NCBI GenBank assembly: GCA_050298595.1
Contig: JBNKUM010000067.1
Coordinates: 2,976 to 66,975, forward strand
Direction: 5' to 3'
Length of the DNA: 64,000 nucleotides
Source of the DNA: Gammaproteobacteria bacterium
Lineage (GTDB): Bacteria; Pseudomonadota; Gammaproteobacteria; GCA-001735895
The first letter of the stretch is position 1, and each line of letters opens with the position of its first letter. A program made the position numbers and the translations under genes. Below are positions 41,331 through 61,154 of the stretch, in pieces. The notes beneath the pieces were generated by a model that ran no database searches, was not told the DNA's origin, and saw only the letters and a list, made by a program, of their open reading frames with translations.

Positions 41331-43027
41331 TGGCACAGCCTGTGTGAAAACCCTACTTAGGAGTATAATAAGTCATTCAAATAGACAGGTGAAACAATGA
41401 CTGGATTCATTGAAGGCGTAGCCAGAATACAAGCCACCTTATTTCCTGAATTACTTGACGATTACATCAGCGAAGAAAATCCCGTTCGCGTTATTGATGC
41501 CTTTGTCGATAATCTTGACCTCGATAAATTGGGTTTCAAAACCTACCCAGCAATAACCGGTCGTCCTGGTTACCACCCATCCAGCATGCTCAAGCTGTTT
41601 ATCTACGGTTACCTCAATCGTATCCAGTCTTCTCGTCGTTTAGAAAGGGAGTCGGGGCGTAATGTCGAGTTAATGTGGTTACTCGGTCGTCTATCTCCCG
41701 ACTTTAAAACCATAGCTGACTTTAGAAAAGATAATGGTAAAGGCATTAAAAATACCTGTCGAACCTTTATCGATTTGTGCAGACAATTAAATATGTTCAC
41801 CGATGCTATTGTCGCCATTGATGGCAGTAAATTTAAAGCAGTCAATAGTAAAGAAAATAATTACACACCCAAGAAACTACAATTTCATATAGACCGGGTT
41901 GAGAAGCATATCGAAGACTATTTACAACAACTCGATACCGCTGACAGGGCAGAAAAACCAGAGACTGATGGCAGGTCTATCGAAGATAAAATCACCTGGC
42001 TTAAGAAAAGACTCGCTGAGTTAAAGGCACTGGAAGGTGAGGTGGACAATCATCCTGACAAACAACTATCAACAACGGATCCGGACTCTCGATTAATGAA
42101 AACACAAGGGATGACCAGAGTGGTTTGTTACAATGTACAAACGGCCGTTGACCCCAAAAACCACCTGATTGTAGCCCATAAGGTAACGAATACACCTGAT
42201 CGTGGACAACTCTGCGGTGTAGGTAAACTGGCTCAAGACGCACTGGATACTAAAGGGATCACTGTTATTGCTGACAAAGGTTATTACAGTGGCCAGGATA
42301 TCAAAGATGCTCAGGATGCGGGTATGACGGTACTTGTACCCAAAGGTGATACTTCTGGCAGCGAGAAAAAAGGCATATTTAACCGATCCCGGTTCGAATA
42401 CGATGCAGAGCAAGATAGATATATTTGCCCCGCCAAACAAGAGTTATCCTATCGATTCACTTCGGTTGAGAAAGGACTATCGTTAAAGAAGTATTGGGCC
42501 TATGAACCCACTTGTAGGGCTTGCTCGATGAAACCACAATGCTCTAACAGTAATCAGGCTCGTAGAATCACTCGTTGGGTTCATCAGGATAGATTGGATC
42601 AAATGGACAAGTTACTCTCTTCTCAGCCAGAGTGCATGCTCATCAGAAAGCAAACCGTTGAACACCCTTATGGCACGATTAAATGCTGGATGGGATCAAC
42701 TCATTTTTTAACGAGACAATTCAAAAATGTCAGCACCGAAATGAGTCTGCATGTTTTGGCTTACAATTTAAAACGCATGATGTCGTTATTTGGACAGGCT
42801 GGATTAGTCGCCGCAATGACAAAGGTATAGGGATTAATGGCCCATAGTAATTGCATCTATAAAATACGTCGATATGACGTGTTTATTCTTTTGTGTAAGC
42901 CAGACAATTTTCTTATTCATAAAAAGGACTCTGAAAATAAGGAAGCTCAGGACTTAGCATAAGAAGTCTGAATAATGACTGGAGGACGAAATTATTAAGA
43001 TAATAGTTTTTACACAGCCTGGGCACA
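41331..43027 (+). mobile_element. IS1182-family insertion sequence
   Basis: Imperfect ~21-bp terminal inverted repeats: tggcacagcctgtgtgaaaac (41331-41351) versus the reverse complement of gtttttacacagcctgggcac (43006-43026), 16/21 matches by hand. They flank a single transposase ORF. Confidence 0.75.
41397..42830 (+). CDS. IS1182-family DDE transposase
   Basis: 477 aa, uninterrupted. N-terminal pattern LFPELLDDYISEENPVRVIDAFV...GRPGYHPSSMLKLFIYGYLNRIQSSRRLERE is typical of IS1182/IS5-like transposases. Confidence 0.85.
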   Translation: MTGFIEGVARIQATLFPELLDDYISEENPVRVIDAFVDNLDLDKLGFKTYPAITGRPGYHPSSMLKLFIYGYLNRIQSSRRLERESGRNVELMWLLGRLSPDFKTIADFRKDNGKGIKNTCRTFIDLCRQLNMFTDAIVAIDGSKFKAVNSKENNYTPKKLQFHIDRVEKHIEDYLQQLDTADRAEKPETDGRSIEDKITWLKKRLAELKALEGEVDNHPDKQLSTTDPDSRLMKTQGMTRVVCYNVQTAVDPKNHLIVAHKVTNTPDRGQLCGVGKLAQDALDTKGITVIADKGYYSGQDIKDAQDAGMTVLVPKGDTSGSEKKGIFNRSRFEYDAEQDRYICPAKQELSYRFTSVEKGLSLKKYWAYEPTCRACSMKPQCSNSNQARRITRWVHQDRLDQMDKLLSSQPECMLIRKQTVEHPYGTIKCWMGSTHFLTRQFKNVSTEMSLHVLAYNLKRMMSLFGQAGLVAAMTKV

Positions 43028-43154: not shown

Positions 43155-43200
43155 TTGACATTGGAGTAAACTGGAATAGTATATCTGGATATCCGTATAT
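43155..43200 (+). promoter_or_regulatory. Putative sigma70 promoter plus palindromic ArsR/SmtB-type operator
   Basis: TTGACA (43155-43160), 16-nt spacer, TAGTAT (43177-43182). A 20-bp imperfect palindrome atatctggatatccgtatat (43181-43200, 16/20 self-complementary) overlaps the -10 region and ends 24 nt before the regulator ATG. Confidence 0.5.
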
Positions 43201-43224
43201 GCGTATTACCACAACAGATCTACT

Positions 43225-48295: not shown

Positions 48296-48420
48296 AGGTC
48301 ACAATAAAGTAGTTACCGATATAGGATATGGAATGTAGTAATAAGTCGCAGCGCTTATCTTAAAAATTAGCCTTTATACATTTCGCGACAACACTTTTTA
48401 TACAGCAGGAGTTACCACTG

Positions 48421-54334: not shown

Positions 54335-56232
54335 TCCTCAGAAATGCCAAAATACAGCAAAAGCTGGAAGCTATCATGCTCATCACCACGGCAGCTGTAT
54401 TAGTGCCGTGTATCCTTGCATTCATGTTTCTTGAGGCCTCATCGGCACGTGATGAGGCCATCATACGTTTAGAATCTCTGGCAACTGTTTTAGCGGTCAA
54501 CAGTAGTGCCGCAATTGCTTTCAGGGATGAGAAGGCAGCATCCGAAGTTATCAACAGCCTTTCTTCTCAGGGTGATATCATCTGGTCAGGCATTCGACTG
54601 ATGAATGGGGAGCTGTTTATCGTGACTAAATCCGGAAGTTTCGAGAAAACCCGTATCCCAAATATCTGGCTTTCAATGTTCAAATCTTTACTGGGTAATA
54701 TCGAGGTAAAAAAAGCGATTGTATTCGATGGGTCCAAGCTTGGTGATTTCATCATTATTGGTGATATGAGTCGGCTGTATCATCATCTCATTCAGCAAAT
54801 ATACGTCGGCCTGGGCATGTTTGTTATCGCCATGCTAATAGCTCTGGTTCTGGCTGATCGGCTGCAACTGGTAGTTTCTGTGCCGGTAAAGAGATTGCTA
54901 GAAACCATGGAAAAAGTCATAGCAGGAAAAGGTTTTGGCTTTAGAGCTGAACGAGTCAGTAATGACGAACTTGGTATTTTGGTCGATGGGTTCAACGAGA
55001 TGCTGCAAAAGATTCAATCCTATGATGAAGAACTGAATAGTCAGCAGAAAAATCTTGAGCTGCAGGTTATAGAGAGAACCCAGCAGCTACAGGAGTCAAA
55101 GATACAGGCTGAATCAGCCAATAAGGCAAAAAGTCTTTTTCTTGCCACCATGAGTCATGAGATACGAACGCCTTTGAATGGTGTGGTGGGGATGATTCAG
55201 GTGTTACGCGAAACGGCGCTGGATAAAGAGCAGCAAAAGTATATCGAGACTCTGGATAGCTCAAGTAAGAGTCTGATGATGCTGATTGATGACCTGCTTG
55301 ATCTTTCAAAAATCGAGTCGGGGAAACTGATATTGGACATTGAACCTTTCTCAAGTAGACAGTGGATAGGCGATATTAGAAATCTGGTCAGCCCTCTTTT
55401 TGACGGTACTCAGGTCGAATTCGACATTAAAGTAAGCAATAACTTGCCGGCCTATCTGCAAGGAGATGCTGCCCGACTGCTTCAGATCGTAGTGAATCTT
55501 GTGACTAATGCGGCCAAATTTACCCGATTTGGAAGGGTGACATTAGATATAGGCGGCCAGCCAGCAAAACAGGGTTATTATGATTTGAGGCTATCCGTTG
55601 AAGATACCGGAATTGGCATACAGGAAGATAAGCTGGATCTCATCTTCAAAGCTTTTCAACAATTAGAAGTGGACCAGATCACCAATAAAGGGGTCGGCCT
55701 TGGGCTTGCGATATGCAAGAGGTTGGCAGATATCATGCAAGGAAGCCTGCGCGTTACCTCTCAACCTGAAGAGGGAAGTTGCTTTACCTTAGAGGTGACT
55801 CTGGCTGAAGCTGAAGTAGGCAGTGATAGCGTCAATAGTGACAATATGCTGGTCATAAACCGGAACCTTTCGGTTCTATTGGTTGATGATGACAATATAA
55901 ATCGTTTTGTTGCACGGTCATTACTGGAAAATGTCGGAATAAAAATCACTGAAGCTCAGAATGGTCAAATTGCCTATGACAAAGTCAAACAGCAGGCATT
56001 TGACCTGATTTTAATGGATATTCAAATGCCTGTAGTGGATGGCATAACAGCGACAAAAATGATTCGAGAATCCGAGGGTGAGGCTCATCGAGTTCCTATC
56101 ATCGGTATAAGTGCCAGCGTCATGAGTGATGAAAAAATTCGCTATCTTGATTCGGGTATGGATGCTGTAGTTGAGAAACCATTGGTGGTCGAGAAGCTGT
56201 TTAAAACTATTCAATCCCTGCTGTATAAGTAG
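54331..56232 (+). CDS. Hybrid histidine kinase with small periplasmic (CHASE8-like) sensor, HAMP, HisKA-HATPase and receiver
   Basis: 633 aa. N-terminus [23 protein letters not shown]...[24 protein letters not shown] resembles the CHASE8-type sensor found in YfiN-like proteins (needs an HMM check). [16 protein letters not shown]; receiver [11 protein letters not shown]...[15 protein letters not shown] overlap with the YfiR-like gene. Confidence 0.85.
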
Positions 56233-56236
56233 TCGT

Positions 56237-56256
56237 CCCTGAAAAAGTTTTCAGGG
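56237..56256 (+). terminator. Stem-loop after the kinase gene
   Basis: ccctgaaa-aagt-tttcaggg: 8-bp stem beginning 5 nt after the stop. No T-tract follows. Confidence 0.4.
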
Positions 56257-56280
56257 CGCGTTCCATAGTGTTGTGAATAA

Positions 56281-56412
<132 letters not shown>

Positions 56413-56745
56413 TCAGTTAGAAAAAGAGCAAACAGATAACTTGTTGAAAAATAGGTAAAAATCAATGCGATTGCCTGCAAATTCTGTTCACTCATTGGGC
56501 AACCTGATAAAGCTATAAGCATTTGTGAAAAATACATGTCCAACTGCGGAATCCAGGATTATTTTGCCAATCCTCGAATTGTCCGTAGAGAGCTATACGG
56601 AATAGCTACTTATCGCTGCTTTACCAAAAAGTAATTGCTGAGTTTAATTGACGCAATATGCATATATCTTAAATAATTAATGCGACATGATATTTAATAA
56701 GCTACAGTACGCAATATAAACAACAATTACACATATGTCGACATC

Positions 56746-58236
56746 ATGAAAGATACGAATCTACCTCCATCTGTCCTCCACAATCGGCTCGATAGCCATG
56801 GCAAAGCTATAGCCTGGGACACTCAGTCATTTCATGACGCACTGATCGCTGCTGGTGCCAACCACTCGTTGCGGACTTCGGAAAGAGAGCTGGAGAATCT
56901 ACTCCCTGCTGCCGTATCGGTGGACAATCTGATCGATGAGACAGGTCGTCAAGCTCTGAAGCTGGTCGTCAGGCAACTGCTGGATGATGTTAAACGCAAG
57001 CGCCACCAGTCCTTGATCCTGCAGCTTGTTGCCTTGCCTGAATCCGGATATCTGTTGCTGGCAAACGATGGTCGTTCTGGCAGGAGATGGATTTTTATTA
57101 ATGAGCTGGATCATCAGACGCTGATAGATGCACTGGACTTATTGGCCGCCGGAAAAACTACATTGTTCTGGCCACATGGCGAGGTGACAAAATATTGCAG
57201 AGATCTGGTGCGGGTACAGGGCAGCATCAAACTCGATTTAGCATCAGGAACTGCTGCATCTCTGGCTACCGTAATATACCGTGAGCCCCTTACGCTACAG
57301 ACCCAGACTCGCCAGAGTGCCGAGTTGATCGAGAAGGCACAACTCTCGCACCTGGACAGGTTAGAGGCCGAGAGCATCTATATCATCCGGGAGGTTGTTG
57401 CCCAGGCGGAAAACCCTGTCATGCTCTACTCAATCGGCAAAGACTCATCTGTGATGTTGCATCTGGCCAAAAAGGCGTTCTACCCCAGCCCGCCTCCATT
57501 CCCGTTGATGCATGTAGATACGCGCTGGAAATTCACCGCTATGTATGACTTTCGGGATCGCATGGCAGAAGAAGTAGGTATGGATCTGATTGTTCACACC
57601 AATCCTGAAGGCATAGAAAAAAATATCAACCCCTACGACCATGGCAGTGCGCTACACACCGACGTGATGAAAACTCAGGGCCTGAAACAGGCACTGGACA
57701 AATACAAATTTGATGCTGCCCTTGGTGGGGCCAGAAGAGACGAGGAAAAAAGCAGAGCGAAGGAAAGGGTCTTCTCGTTCAGATCCACAGCCCATCGCTG
57801 GGACCCGAAGAACCAGAGGCCAGAGCTGTGGAATCTATACAACGGGTACAAGAAAAAGGATGAAAGCATCCGCGTGTTTCCTTTGTCCAACTGGACAGAG
57901 CTGGATATCTGGCAATACATATATCGAGAGAGCATACCCATCGTTCCTCTTTATTTCGCGGCAGAACGGCCAGTTGTTATGCAGGATGGCATGCTGGTGC
58001 TGGTGGACGATGACAGAATGCACCTGTTTGAAGATGACAAGATTGAAATCCGCAAGGTACGTTTCCGTACACTGGGTTGCTATCCGCTGACCGGTGCCGT
58101 CGAATCAGAGGCGGACAATCTCTCCTCTATCGTTCTTGAACTGCTACAGAGCAGAACCAGCGAACGAGAGGGTCGAGCCATAGATAGTGATTCATCTGCA
58201 TCCATGGAAAAGAAAAAACAGGAGGGCTACTTCTGA
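56746..58236 (+). CDS. cysD: Sulfate adenylyltransferase subunit 2 (CysD) with ~190-aa N-terminal in-frame extension
   Basis: Residues ~196-496 are collinear with canonical ~305-aa CysD ([66 protein letters not shown]). The frame stays open upstream to ATG 56746. An internal TTG at 57325 would give a canonical-length protein. Confidence 0.85.
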
Positions 58237-60104
58237 TGAACGAGCTTATTAAACAGGTCGATGACTACATAGAAACTCAGTCAAAACTTGACCTTCTCAG
58301 ATTCATCACTTGCGGTAGCGTGGATGACGGCAAGAGCACACTTATCGGCAGGATGCTGTATGATGCTCAGTTACTCTTTGAAGATCAGGTTAGCGCTCTT
58401 CAGAGCGATTCCAGAAAGATGGGAACCCAGGGGGGCGATATAGACTTCGCGTTGCTGGTCGATGGACTGGGAGCCGAACGGGAACAGGGAATTACCATTG
58501 ATGTAGCCTACCGCTACTTCAATACCGACAGACGAAAGTTTATCGTGGCGGATACACCGGGGTACGAACAGTACACCCGTAACATGGTAACCGGGGCCTC
58601 TACTGCAGACGTCGCTGTGATACTTGTGGATGCATCGCAGGGGATTCTTAGTCAGACCCGCAGGCACTCATTCATCGCTTCGCTGCTGGGTATCAAGCAT
58701 GTGGTCCTTGCGATCAACAAAATGGATATAGTCGACTATAAAGAAACGATATTCGATCAAATCCATGAAGCCTACCTGAATTTTGCCGAGCTACTGAACT
58801 TTGAGGCTATCACAGCCATTCCGCTATCGGCACTGAAGGGCGACAACGTTATTCAGCGCTCCAAAATGACAGACTGGTATCACGGCCCAACCTTGCTGGG
58901 TTTCCTGGAAACCGTTGATGTTCGAAAATCCCAGCTAGACTATCCATTCCGCTACCCGGTTCAGTGGGTTAATCGTCCAAATTCTGAATTCCGTGGTTTT
59001 TCTGGTACTGTCGTCGCTGGCAGTATTGCGCGCGGCGAAGCAGTCAGAGTGCTGCCTTCTGGAGAAGTCGCCAATGTGAAGGAAATCGTACTGTATCAGG
59101 ATCAGCTCAGCCGCTGTGTTGCTGATCAGTCCGTTACCATTACCCTGGACAGGGAGATCGATATTTCACGCGGAGACATACTCGTTACCGCTGATGACCC
59201 CTGTGAAGTATCCGACCAGTTTGAGGTTACCCTCGTCTGGATGGATCAGGAAGAAGGTTTTGCCGGTCGCTCCTACCTGATGAAAATTGGCACCCAGCTG
59301 GTTAATGCCACAATCACAGACATCAAATACAAGTACGACATCAATACACACGACCGGCTCTCCTCCAAGACATTGCACCTCAATGAAATTGGTCGCGCCA
59401 CCATAAGTCTCGACAAAGCAGTACCTTTTGAGGCCTACGAAAAATGCAGGCAAATGGGAGCCTTCGTACTAATTGACCGCTACCGTTTCGCCACGGTATC
59501 AGCCGGGATGATTTCTTTCGCCCTGCGTCGCGCGAGTAATGTACACACCCAGGCCCTCACTGTTGACAGAGCAGCACGGGAACGGCTGAATAATCACAGC
59601 GGCAAGGTCATCTGGTTTACAGGGCTGAGCGGATCAGGAAAGTCGACGCTGGCTAACGCCATGGAACAACAGCTGTACAAACGGGGTATTCGCACCTACA
59701 TACTGGATGGTGACAATGTCCGACAGGGACTCAACAAGGATCTAGGCTTTACCGATGCAGACAGAGTCGAAAATATCCGGCGCATTGCCGAGGTGGCCAA
59801 ACTCATGGTTGATGCTGGTCTGGTGGTGATGACCGCCTTCATTTCTCCATTCCGTTCAGAGCGCGACATGGCGCGCTCTCTGTTCGGCGAAGGTGAGTTT
59901 ATAGAGGTGTTTGTCGATACGCCACTGGCGATAGCTGAGGAGCGAGATCCGAAAGGACTGTACAGGAAAGCTCGTCGTGGAGAACTACCCCACTTTACCG
60001 GCATAGACAGCCCTTACGAAGCACCGGAAGCGCCCGAACTTGATTTGAATACAGGAAGCTTATCGATTGACGAATGTGTCGAGAAGTTGCTGAAATTATT
60101 CTGA
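58236..60104 (+). CDS. cysNC: Bifunctional sulfate adenylyltransferase subunit 1 / adenylylsulfate kinase (CysN-CysC fusion, NodQ-like)
   Basis: 622 aa. GTPase part: [28 protein letters not shown]-kinase part: [17 protein letters not shown] overlaps the cysD stop (TGATG). Confidence 0.9.
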
Positions 60105-60109
60105 TGAAT

Positions 60110-60636
60110 AAGTCCTACTACAGAGAAACGCATCTCTAAAGCATGGCAAAAGTACTGTCCTGGTGGGTGACGGCAACGCTCACCAGGGGCCTCATTGCGT
60201 TCTTTATAACCAGTGATTTTATACGGCTCTGACCATCCAGTGATCATGGCAAAGGATACCCTTGAAATGAGGCAGGATGCCGGTTTCATCGGCCTGAGCC
60301 AGTTTGTCTTTAGTCAACTGTTCAAATTGGAATAAACTCGACGATATAGGGATCATCCGTCTTTTTCAGCATCTTGCCCATATACCCTGTTTGAGCTCCT
60401 GAGGGTTTGTCTGATTTCTTGTGTGAGGTCTTTAAACGATTTGGATCACTCGACGGTGGCTTGCTGCTGTTTTTACTGGTCAGTGTTGTGCGGTTTATCA
60501 GCACAGAAACTAACAGCAGCAGAACCTTTAAAGCGGCTCGAACAGAAGATGACAGTCCAAGTTCCTGGTCAATCAGTTGCCGGGCATTATGGAGAGTCTT
60601 TTCAACCTCAATCGAATCTATTTTCAATGGATACAC
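60110..60636 (-). pseudogene. Decayed IS66-family transposase (TnpC) remnant
   Basis: ORF 60322..60636 has the IS66 N-terminal hallmark KNSSKPPSSDPN...KPSGAQTGYMG. Downstream fragments read ADETGILPHFKGILCHDHW and then shift frame. Internal deletions are evident and there is no tnpA/tnpB. Confidence 0.65.
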
Positions 60637-61154
60637 CCGTCCCTTTCAGTACAGGGGTATTCTCGTATGACTTTTCAGGGGCGACTTTTTCTCTTTGTAT
60701 AGCTCTGTGCGCCGTTAAAAAAATGAATTCATGAATGGGGTCACTGTCATGCTGTTAAAGCAATTAAACATTATCAGGTACGACCTGAGTACGCTTTATT
60801 ATACGATTGATAATTCTTGTGAAATTTTCAAAAAACCTATGAAATCCACCCAAGCTTTTTTTATGATTAATTTACGGTGAGTAGTTACACTTAAATTTTA
60901 AATAAGTGTTATAAATCTGTGCATAAATATGGGGCAGAGAGCATTATTCTCTAATGCTGGAATCAATGGCTCTATGCTCCGGACTTTAGCAGTAATCTTT
61001 CACCAGCTCTGAATAATATTAAGCGCGCTCGGTTAGAACTTGATTTTGTCCATGTTTCTATATAAATACACTGTATTGAGTATTTGTATAGAAAGAATTT
61101 GATTATTGAGTAGTATCGTGGCCACAATGTTCCTATTCACTAAGATCTTAAGCT

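Follow-up and report, generated by a model that had tools for sequence, protein, structure and literature searches.

The activation of sulfate by CysD and CysN belongs to textbook biochemistry. To our knowledge, the regulation of dedicated operons that supply 3'-phosphoadenosine 5'-phosphosulfate (PAPS) for sulfated surface polysaccharides is poorly understood. Trigger enzymes combine a metabolic activity with a DNA-binding module, which is a winged helix in BirA, a ribbon-helix-helix in PutA and an Xre-type helix-turn-helix (HTH) in NadR. A fungal PAPS reductase A activates transcription through an added terminal peptide (PMC4848566). Here, we analysed a long cysD gene in a stretch of 64,000 nucleotides from a gammaproteobacterial genome (assembly GCA_050298595.1, contig JBNKUM010000067.1, positions 2,976 to 66,975), which we call the window. 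The gene encodes a CysD core with an N-terminal extension of about 190 residues and is followed by a fused cysN-cysC gene (cysNC). We propose that the extension is a DNA-binding domain that makes CysD an autoregulating trigger enzyme of this PAPS-supply operon, and we give this mechanism a probability of about 0.5. The coordinates of the features are listed in Table 1.

The N-terminal extension of CysD

The CysD models matched only the C-terminal part of the protein. NCBIfam NF009214 matched residues 183-496 with 532.1 bits, above its equivalog cutoff of 413, TIGR02039 matched residues 203-496 with 497.2 bits (cutoff 396.6) and the Pfam family PAPS_reduct (PF01507) matched residues 223-450 with 198 bits. 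The core (residues ~197-496) is full-length and has the PP-loop SxGxDS, which reads S-I-G-K-D-S at residues 228-233. Judged by these matches, the C-terminal 300 residues are an ordinary small subunit of ATP sulfurylase (CysD/NodP). A canonical CysD has about 300 residues and no added domain, whereas here residues 1 to ~190 lie outside all CysD models. An earlier note on this DNA had not recognised the extension, and residues 1 to ~180 indeed matched no family in Pfam, NCBIfam, PHROGs or PADLOC. The identical protein is encoded on six public contigs.

The same note had described a single open frame from ATG 56746 to the end of CysD, AT-rich DNA upstream of it and no internal ATG ahead of the ATP pyrophosphatase (ATP-PPase) core. 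These observations were all confirmed. The G+C content is 0.50-0.54 within the gene versus 0.35-0.38 across the 450 bp upstream, and methionine is absent from the translation between residue 2 and the PP-loop region. ATG 56746 is the sole start codon between the upstream stop (56698-56700) and the residues P7 and N13, which follow directly after it and are conserved in the family.

The spread of the extension was followed by pattern scans of a genome and a metagenome collection, the latter with a 10-sequence alignment. The scans gave 9 and 15 loci, respectively, and the extension was in frame with CysD in 9/9 and 15/15 of them. The genome loci came from metagenome-assembled genomes (MAGs) of Gammaproteobacteria, from Azotimanducaceae, Neptuniibacter, Hoeflea and Nitratireductor and from one alphaproteobacterial MAG. 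The extension is 79-81% identical in the sister locus L005, and in 23 further loci, always fused to CysD, the identity is 30-43%. Compared with L005, the ratio of nonsynonymous to synonymous substitutions (dN/dS) was 0.124 at a dS of 0.93 for the extension and 0.049 for the CysD core. The earlier view that the open frame did not arise by chance is upheld by these data. In untruncated loci the frame stays open for ~490-590 codons, with the exception of a Hoeflea MAG copy split by insertion sequences (IS), and the start codon is found about 20 residues (9-25) ahead of a conserved tryptophan.

A word-indexed protein search with the extension alone returned one relative (P0001, 36% identical), likewise fused to CysD and split by two IS elements in a Hoeflea MAG, and three matches were obtained with the profile of 44 sequences. 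The recall of this search was judged too low, and the family size was taken from an exhaustive HMMER profile search of 1.84 billion representatives. This gave 150 clusters at E<=1e-3 and 75 at E<=1e-10. All domain-bearing representatives that are long enough run on into a CysD-like core, except P0037 (376 residues; L030 197-1327, JGI 3300043540), in which the same N-terminal domain is joined to an adenosine 5'-phosphosulfate (APS) kinase. The short family members stop at contig edges, and no stand-alone homologue was found among the clusters. The earlier note had proposed to check for homologous long CysD forms and their neighbours; such forms exist, with the fused cysN-cysC as their constant partner. 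The apparent stand-alone forms of the extension were contig fragments, frameshifts or assembly chimeras.

Several candidates for a stand-alone form or another fusion partner were rejected. P0128 is a long cysD with a frameshift, from an assembly in which many genes are split. Assembly chimeras account for P0015, P0114 and P0141, and in P0117 a CysD motif is followed by terminal sequence that derives from an adapter. P0133, a 1367-residue NHL-repeat protein, aligned with the beta-hairpin segment only, five times, and is a spurious match. The extension was found in 0/362 plasmid-borne cysD genes.

The relation of the long forms to each other was analysed with a neighbour-joining tree of the CysD cores. 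The long-form cores formed one clade apart from ten canonical CysDs. This clade holds alphaproteobacterial as well as gammaproteobacterial members, which points to a single origin of the long form followed by spread. In the Hoeflea MAG (L001 10001-14052; L010 is the same place) two IS elements with DDE transposases break the long cysD into an N-terminal piece of 326 residues and a C-terminal piece of 122 residues, followed by an intact cysNC, genes of an ATP-binding cassette (ABC) transporter and a sulfotransferase gene.

Alternatively, the extension could be the relic of an upstream gene that was joined to cysD by loss of a stop codon, with the functional protein starting at TTG 57325. This had been the second alternative of the earlier note. 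The TTG is in frame, as the note had said, and would yield a canonical N-terminus and a canonical length. In addition, RefSeq lists the long cysD of Hoeflea poritis (L008 7992-9470, NZ_JAPJZH010000008.1) with 307 (WP_425499155.1) or 399 residues (WP_271090425.1). We reject this explanation because the fusion is conserved in all loci throughout the clade, the extension is under selection (dN/dS 0.12), the linker to the core (residues ~176-196) varies in length and sequence over the family without a conserved start codon, and a promoter-like site on the + strand was predicted only ahead of ATG 56746, with none before TTG 57325. The linker itself had a dN/dS of 0.21. The confident fold prediction described below and the lack of a stand-alone homologue also speak against a relic, to which we give next to no credence. 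The extension is almost certainly a genuine translated domain of CysD. The data support the first alternative of the note, in which sulfate adenylyltransferase carries a novel regulatory or partner domain, since the family is conserved, under selection and well-folding in the prediction.

It follows for H. poritis that the start codon chosen in RefSeq cuts the conserved N-terminal domain off CysD. This trimming may explain why the domain has been overlooked so far; full-text literature searches gave no description of an extended CysD. The annotation artefact is systematic, and hidden N-terminal domains of this sort may be common on well-known enzymes.

Predicted fold of the N-terminal domain

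Three things go beyond the earlier note: the constant pairing with the fused cysN-cysC, an operator-like motif pair upstream of the gene, and the fold of the N-terminal domain. The fold was predicted with AlphaFold2 from the 44-sequence alignment. The model had a mean predicted local distance difference test score of 94.6 and a predicted template modelling score of 0.87, and consists of a helical head followed by a body. The beta-beta-beta-alpha-beta-alpha-beta core of the body superposes on known members of the RNase H-like fold. When the model was searched with Foldseek against the PDB and BFVD, no match was obtained at E<=1e-3. Many of the weak matches share the RNase H-like fold class. A further fold search had ParM and other proteins of the ASKHA (acetate and sugar kinase, Hsc70, actin) superfamily, RuvX and PIWI domains among its matches, and the alignments covered the body only.

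Conservation was read from a 44- and a 10-sequence alignment. R47 and W115 are invariant, and E46, D64, R86, D108, R110, R113 and G145 are conserved in at least 90% of the members of the 44-sequence alignment. The head is marked by [KR]-T-x-E-R-x-L in the second helix, a D64-E65-x-G-R loop and a helix 72-84 that ends in K-R-K-R86. The motifs of the body are the beta2-beta3 hairpin A-N-D108-G-R110-x-x-R113-R-W115 and P-H144-G145 just after beta4. No conserved acidic residue was found in beta1, where the consensus is xLFxQL, or after beta4, where P-H-G stands, and the catalytic DDE triad of transposases is therefore absent. D108, the sole near-invariant acidic residue of the body, sits in the beta2-beta3 hairpin. 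None of the 44 members matched a transposase or integrase by sequence in Pfam, NCBIfam, PHROGs or the PDB sequences, and the members had no consistent match in Pfam, PHROGs or PADLOC.

In the head, the helices 26-35 and 42-52 and their pattern S-x-[KR]-T-x-E-R-x-L are reminiscent of an HTH. Since this assignment uses the pattern and the secondary structure only, we word it as HTH-like. One of the 44 members matched GntR at an E-value of 0.15, and no HTH family was matched consistently. A weak match of the head to Helicobacter pylori HP0242 in the PDB sequence profiles (E 0.005, single-copy chain) was judged compositional and was not used. The conserved basic residues R47, K/R83-86, R110, R113 and R114 would suit a contact to nucleic acid.

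According to the model, the N-terminal domain is composed of a three-helix head, probably HTH-like, and a catalytically dead RNase H-like body. In overall layout it is predicted to correspond to a DDE transposase or integrase whose active site is missing. The domain represents a new family that is missing from Pfam, NCBIfam, PHROGs and PADLOC. It has an RNase H-like fold in the model, lacks the active site of a nuclease and may exemplify the domestication of a transposase in bacteria.

A pair of inverted motifs at the cysD promoter

Alignment of the DNA upstream of the long cysD genes gave a 16-bp motif with the consensus TTGTCGCAATATGCAW, which is present in two inverted copies. The weight matrix of the motif was scanned over 26 sequences (332 kb including the window) and later over four further loci. 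In 20/28 non-redundant loci a site on the + strand with 14.8-24.8 bits was found 88-126 nucleotides before the start codon, together with an inverted copy 80-83 bp downstream. One more locus had the same pair with a spacing of 103 bp, corresponding to about two extra helical turns, one had a weak pair at 82 bp and five had a single copy above the threshold. The positions G3, C5 and G6 are invariant in both copies, whereas the AT-rich centre is variable, and the spacer between the copies is not conserved. Only two other matches of at least 16 bits occurred in the 332 kb. The score of the distal site in the window was never reached in 20,000 simulated intergenic regions.

For a control, we scanned about 700 nucleotides upstream of each of ten canonical cysD/nodP loci from the plasmid collection, including nodPQ of S. 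meliloti and copies beside sulfotransferases. Nothing scored above 7.9 bits. A conserved operator-like pair at the enzyme's own promoter, as is expected of a trigger enzyme, was thus present in 20/28 long-form loci and in 0/10 canonical ones. The gene of the APS-kinase fusion (L030) has a site of 19.4 bits in the same orientation that ends 19 nucleotides before its ATG and is the only one above 10.5 bits in this 7.3-kb locus; a distal copy was not seen in the 196 nucleotides available. These results show that the pair is real and that the motif accompanies the domain.

Additional sites were observed. In L027 (5864-5982), the locus with the 103-bp spacing, the proximal copy abuts the ATG. The spacer of the window holds an extra half-site at 56697-56712, TTAATGCGACATGA, that matches the GCGACA end of the motif, and similar internal half-sites are present in L007 and L017. 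Two further 16-bp matches were found in the window, both in the inverted orientation of the cysD proximal site. The first, at 43199-43214 on the - strand (16.2 bits), ends 10 nucleotides before ATG 43225 of an operon encoding an ArsR-family regulator and an ArsP permease. The second, at 48376-48391 on the - strand (16.1 bits), ends 29 nucleotides before ATG 48421 (GGACT) of an operon encoding S-adenosylmethionine decarboxylase and spermidine synthase. Three matches of at least 16 bits were observed in the window versus 0.26 expected. The two further matches could be more targets of the same factor or chance.

The promoter was then considered. The only promoter-like site predicted on the + strand is TTGACG-18-AATAAT at 56648-56677, upstream of ATG 56746. 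When several gammaproteobacterial loci were registered on the proximal site, a pattern TTGAxA-N16-18-xATAAT appeared that runs into the first base of the site. With a promoter abutting the proximal site, transcription would start inside this site and the distal site would be left untranscribed.

This bears on the possibility that the inverted motifs act in the mRNA, where a long-range stem would hide the ribosome-binding region and might be bound by the N-terminal domain as a translational autoregulator. The two copies are reverse complements, the proximal one ends 0-29 nucleotides before the start codon, and a Shine-Dalgarno sequence is missing in many loci. The copies of one locus also paired slightly better with each other than with shuffled partners (12.8/16 versus 12.0/16, P = 4e-4), but this excess amounts to 0.8 pair only, and the would-be helices contain breaks, so that uninterrupted pairing typically extends over no more than 5-9 bp. 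Conservation goes beyond complementarity and concerns the sequence as such, in which three bases are invariant. The fixed spacing of 80-83 bp, with one case of 21 bp more, fits the geometry of DNA and is hard to understand as a constraint on an RNA loop. Predicted promoters at or between the sites would leave the distal copy out of the transcript, and Rfam found nothing in the window at 56000-57500. We therefore favour DNA operators over an RNA stem, which we regard as improbable.

The arrangement of the 16-mers also resembles terminal inverted repeats. They begin with TG, as do the ends of many DDE elements, and the extension could accordingly be an active transposase or nuclease domain with the repeats as transposon ends that are still mobilised. 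This is very improbable, since the acidic residues of the triad are not conserved, both repeats lie upstream of the gene instead of flanking it, and their position relative to the gene is fixed over a deep clade, unlike that of a mobile element.

We propose instead that CysD regulates its own operon. The N-terminal domain would bind DNA at the 16-bp site TTGTCGCAATATGCAW, of which two inverted copies about 81 bp apart bracket the promoter and the start site of cysD. Since the copies are placed in this way, an oligomeric CysD-CysN(C) complex could occupy both sites, probably looping the DNA, and the occupancy would set the transcription of the operon. The enzyme part would be the sensor of the pathway state, namely of ATP, sulfate, APS or the PAPS load. 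CysD would thus act as a trigger enzyme, as do BirA, PutA and NadR. Of this mechanism, we infer the domain as the binder of the motif and the direction of regulation.

A competing explanation is that the N-terminal domain is a module for ligand sensing or protein docking, and that another transcription factor, encoded at an unlinked place, controls the PAPS genes of this clade with the motif pair as its operator. The domain might bind APS, PAPS or 3'-phosphoadenosine 5'-phosphate (PAP), or it might tether the PAPS-making enzyme to sulfotransferases or to the polysaccharide export machinery. The conserved arginine cluster could bind sulfate or phosphate groups, the charge of the domain is near neutral, both of its fusion partners are enzymes of the PAPS pathway and the loci lie in sulfation clusters. 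In addition, the long forms are one clade, and the motif may merely have been inherited together with them. However, no conserved regulator gene accompanies the loci across the alpha- and gammaproteobacteria, and a separate factor would need to be conserved or co-transferred throughout these lineages. The motif is missing from canonical cysD/nodP genes that lie in sulfation contexts, and a helical head with an HTH-like pattern stands ahead of the body. We consider this explanation unlikely, though it is the most serious of the alternatives.

Several points weigh against autoregulation by a DNA-binding domain. In none of the libraries did the sequence match an HTH or transposase family. With an isoelectric point of 6.65 in the window protein and a family median of 8.2, the domain is not markedly basic, and its charge is uninformative. 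One of the 28 loci (L044) has no clear site, and the proximal copy is degenerate in the window (9.7 bits) and in the sister locus L005 (12.9 bits). The contrast of 20/28 versus 0/10 does not count independent events, and since the long-form cores are one clade, motif and domain could be co-inherited without interacting. The APS-kinase gene could merely share a regulon under another factor. Scans of five other loci gave promoter predictions that were inconsistent between loci, and the partial -35/-10 pattern emerged only after re-registering on the proximal site, so the promoter step is tentative.

The domain and the matching operator-like pair lead to a testable hypothesis, in which the enzyme monitors the pathway it belongs to and controls how strongly it is expressed. 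Tentatively, we go further and suggest that a subunit of ATP sulfurylase may have captured a domesticated, dead transposase-like module that binds operators resembling former terminal repeats, and that the resulting self-regulation couples PAPS synthesis for polysaccharide sulfation to the catalytic state of the enzyme. If true, the long CysD would represent a new class of transposase-derived transcription factors in prokaryotes, hidden so far by start-codon trimming in annotation.

Genomic context and comparison with known systems

Table 1. Position of the long cysD gene, its parts and the associated sites in the window.
Feature	Coordinates	Strand	Basis and remarks
Long cysD gene (496 residues)	56746..58236	+	N-terminal domain, linker and CysD core; ATG start; single open reading frame
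Helical head, residues ~24-87	56815..57006	+	W24-D-T; helices 26-35, 42-52 and 72-84; AlphaFold2 model and alignments
RNase H-like body, residues ~88-175 (predicted)	57007..57270	+	beta1-beta2-beta3-alpha-beta4-alpha-beta5
Variable linker from N-terminal domain to CysD core	57271..57333	+	Contains in-frame TTG 57325; family alignment
CysD core (ATP-PPase fold, PP-loop S-I-G-K-D-S)	57334..58233	+	Matches to NF009214, TIGR02039 and PF01507
Distal operator-like site TTGACGCAATATGCAT	56648..56663	+	Weight-matrix scan, 22.7 bits; first six bases are the predicted -35
Proximal inverted copy ATGTCGACATATGTGT (on the - strand)	56729..56744	-	Weight matrix, 9.7 bits; 81 bp from the distal site; ends 1 nucleotide before the ATG
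Fused cysN-cysC (GTPase and APS kinase, 622 residues)	58236..60104	+	Open reading frame; Pfam GTP_EFTU and APS_kinase for the identical gene in L002-L004

In the window, cysD and cysNC overlap by a single base, which is the last of the cysD stop codon and the first of the cysNC ATG (58236-58238). A fused cysN-cysC follows straight after the long cysD in every locus with enough sequence and is split by a frameshift in L014. Since it follows in every locus with room for it, the module of long cysD and cysNC makes PAPS, and by homology the window CysD works with the downstream CysN-CysC in this pathway.

The neighbours of the relatives are mostly genes for surface polysaccharides, namely sugar nucleotidyltransferases, GDP-mannose dehydratase, epimerases and glycosyltransferases, and further Bac_transf, the Wzm/Wzt exporters, Wzz and UDP-glucose dehydrogenase. 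The neighbours also include sulfotransferases, CysQ-like PAP phosphatases and TauE. Sulfotransferase or polysaccharide genes are found at L001, L007, L008, L011, L013, L019, L025, L028, L044 and L045. From this context, the operon of the relatives would supply PAPS for sulfation in a NodPQ-like manner. Beside the window copy no such neighbours were seen; it lies between a hybrid sensor kinase (DUF4154/CHASE8) and IS and restriction-modification genes.

Further observations concern the surroundings. The cysD-cysNC block of the window (56746-60104) has a G+C content of ~0.50 versus 0.35-0.44 in its flanks, IS-type genes are nearby and a DDE transposase is encoded at 41397-42830, which is compatible with horizontal acquisition. 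The region 3' of cysNC is strain-variable (window 60104-60640 versus L002 13359-14307). In L002, a DUF2061 gene overlaps the cysNC stop and is followed by a Y1-transposase-like open reading frame, whereas the window, L003 and L004 have a DUF6444-like frame of 104 residues instead (60322-60636, - strand). Further on, L002 (15721-21491) encodes a type I restriction-modification system (HsdM, HsdS), then a SLATT_5 protein and a reverse transcriptase (RVT_1), and this region looks like a defence island. L014 (GCA_038143515.1, JAYQMB010000003.1) is the sole locus where the long cysD lies in an assimilatory context, with a LysR regulator, cysteine-synthase-like genes and an ABC transporter. Its LysR, PALP, cysD and cysN/cysC genes are each in pieces, which suggests sequencing frameshifts or pseudogenisation.

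Compared with known systems, the window protein resembles canonical CysD/NodP in its full-length core with the PP-loop (residues ~197-496), NodQ in the fusion of cysN to cysC directly after cysD, and the nodPQ-type PAPS supply in the sulfotransferase and polysaccharide genes beside its relatives. It differs from canonical CysD by the ~190 extra N-terminal residues, which are predicted to fold as a separate domain. The long forms are a separate clade with an operator-like pair that the canonical loci lack.

In structure, the nearest systems according to the model are the DDE transposases and the integrases of retroviruses (rve, IS21 IstA, mariner Mos1), together with domesticated transposase-derived regulators. 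The domain has no sequence similarity to any transposase family and lacks the catalytic triad that defines the DDE enzymes. It also differs from these systems in that the repeats have a fixed place upstream of cysD and that its fusion partner is an enzyme of metabolism. The ROK repressors NagC and Mlc combine an HTH with an ASKHA sugar-kinase-like sensor. Here a single RNase H-like lobe is predicted in place of the ASKHA pair, the conserved hairpin is beta2-beta3 and not the beta1-beta2 phosphate-1 loop, and there is no sequence match.

In function, the nearest analogues would be BirA, PutA and NadR. Like them, the long CysD joins an enzyme of the pathway to a putative DNA-binding module in a single polypeptide, and conserved sites lie at the promoter of its gene. 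The module differs from theirs, being HTH-like plus RNase H-like in the prediction instead of winged-helix, ribbon-helix-helix or Xre-type HTH. Within the same ATP-PPase superfamily and the same pathway, the nearest analogue would be the fungal PAPS reductase A, which has a role in transcription through an added terminal peptide (PMC4848566); there it is a short C-terminal activation peptide, whereas in the long CysD it would be a folded DNA-binding domain.

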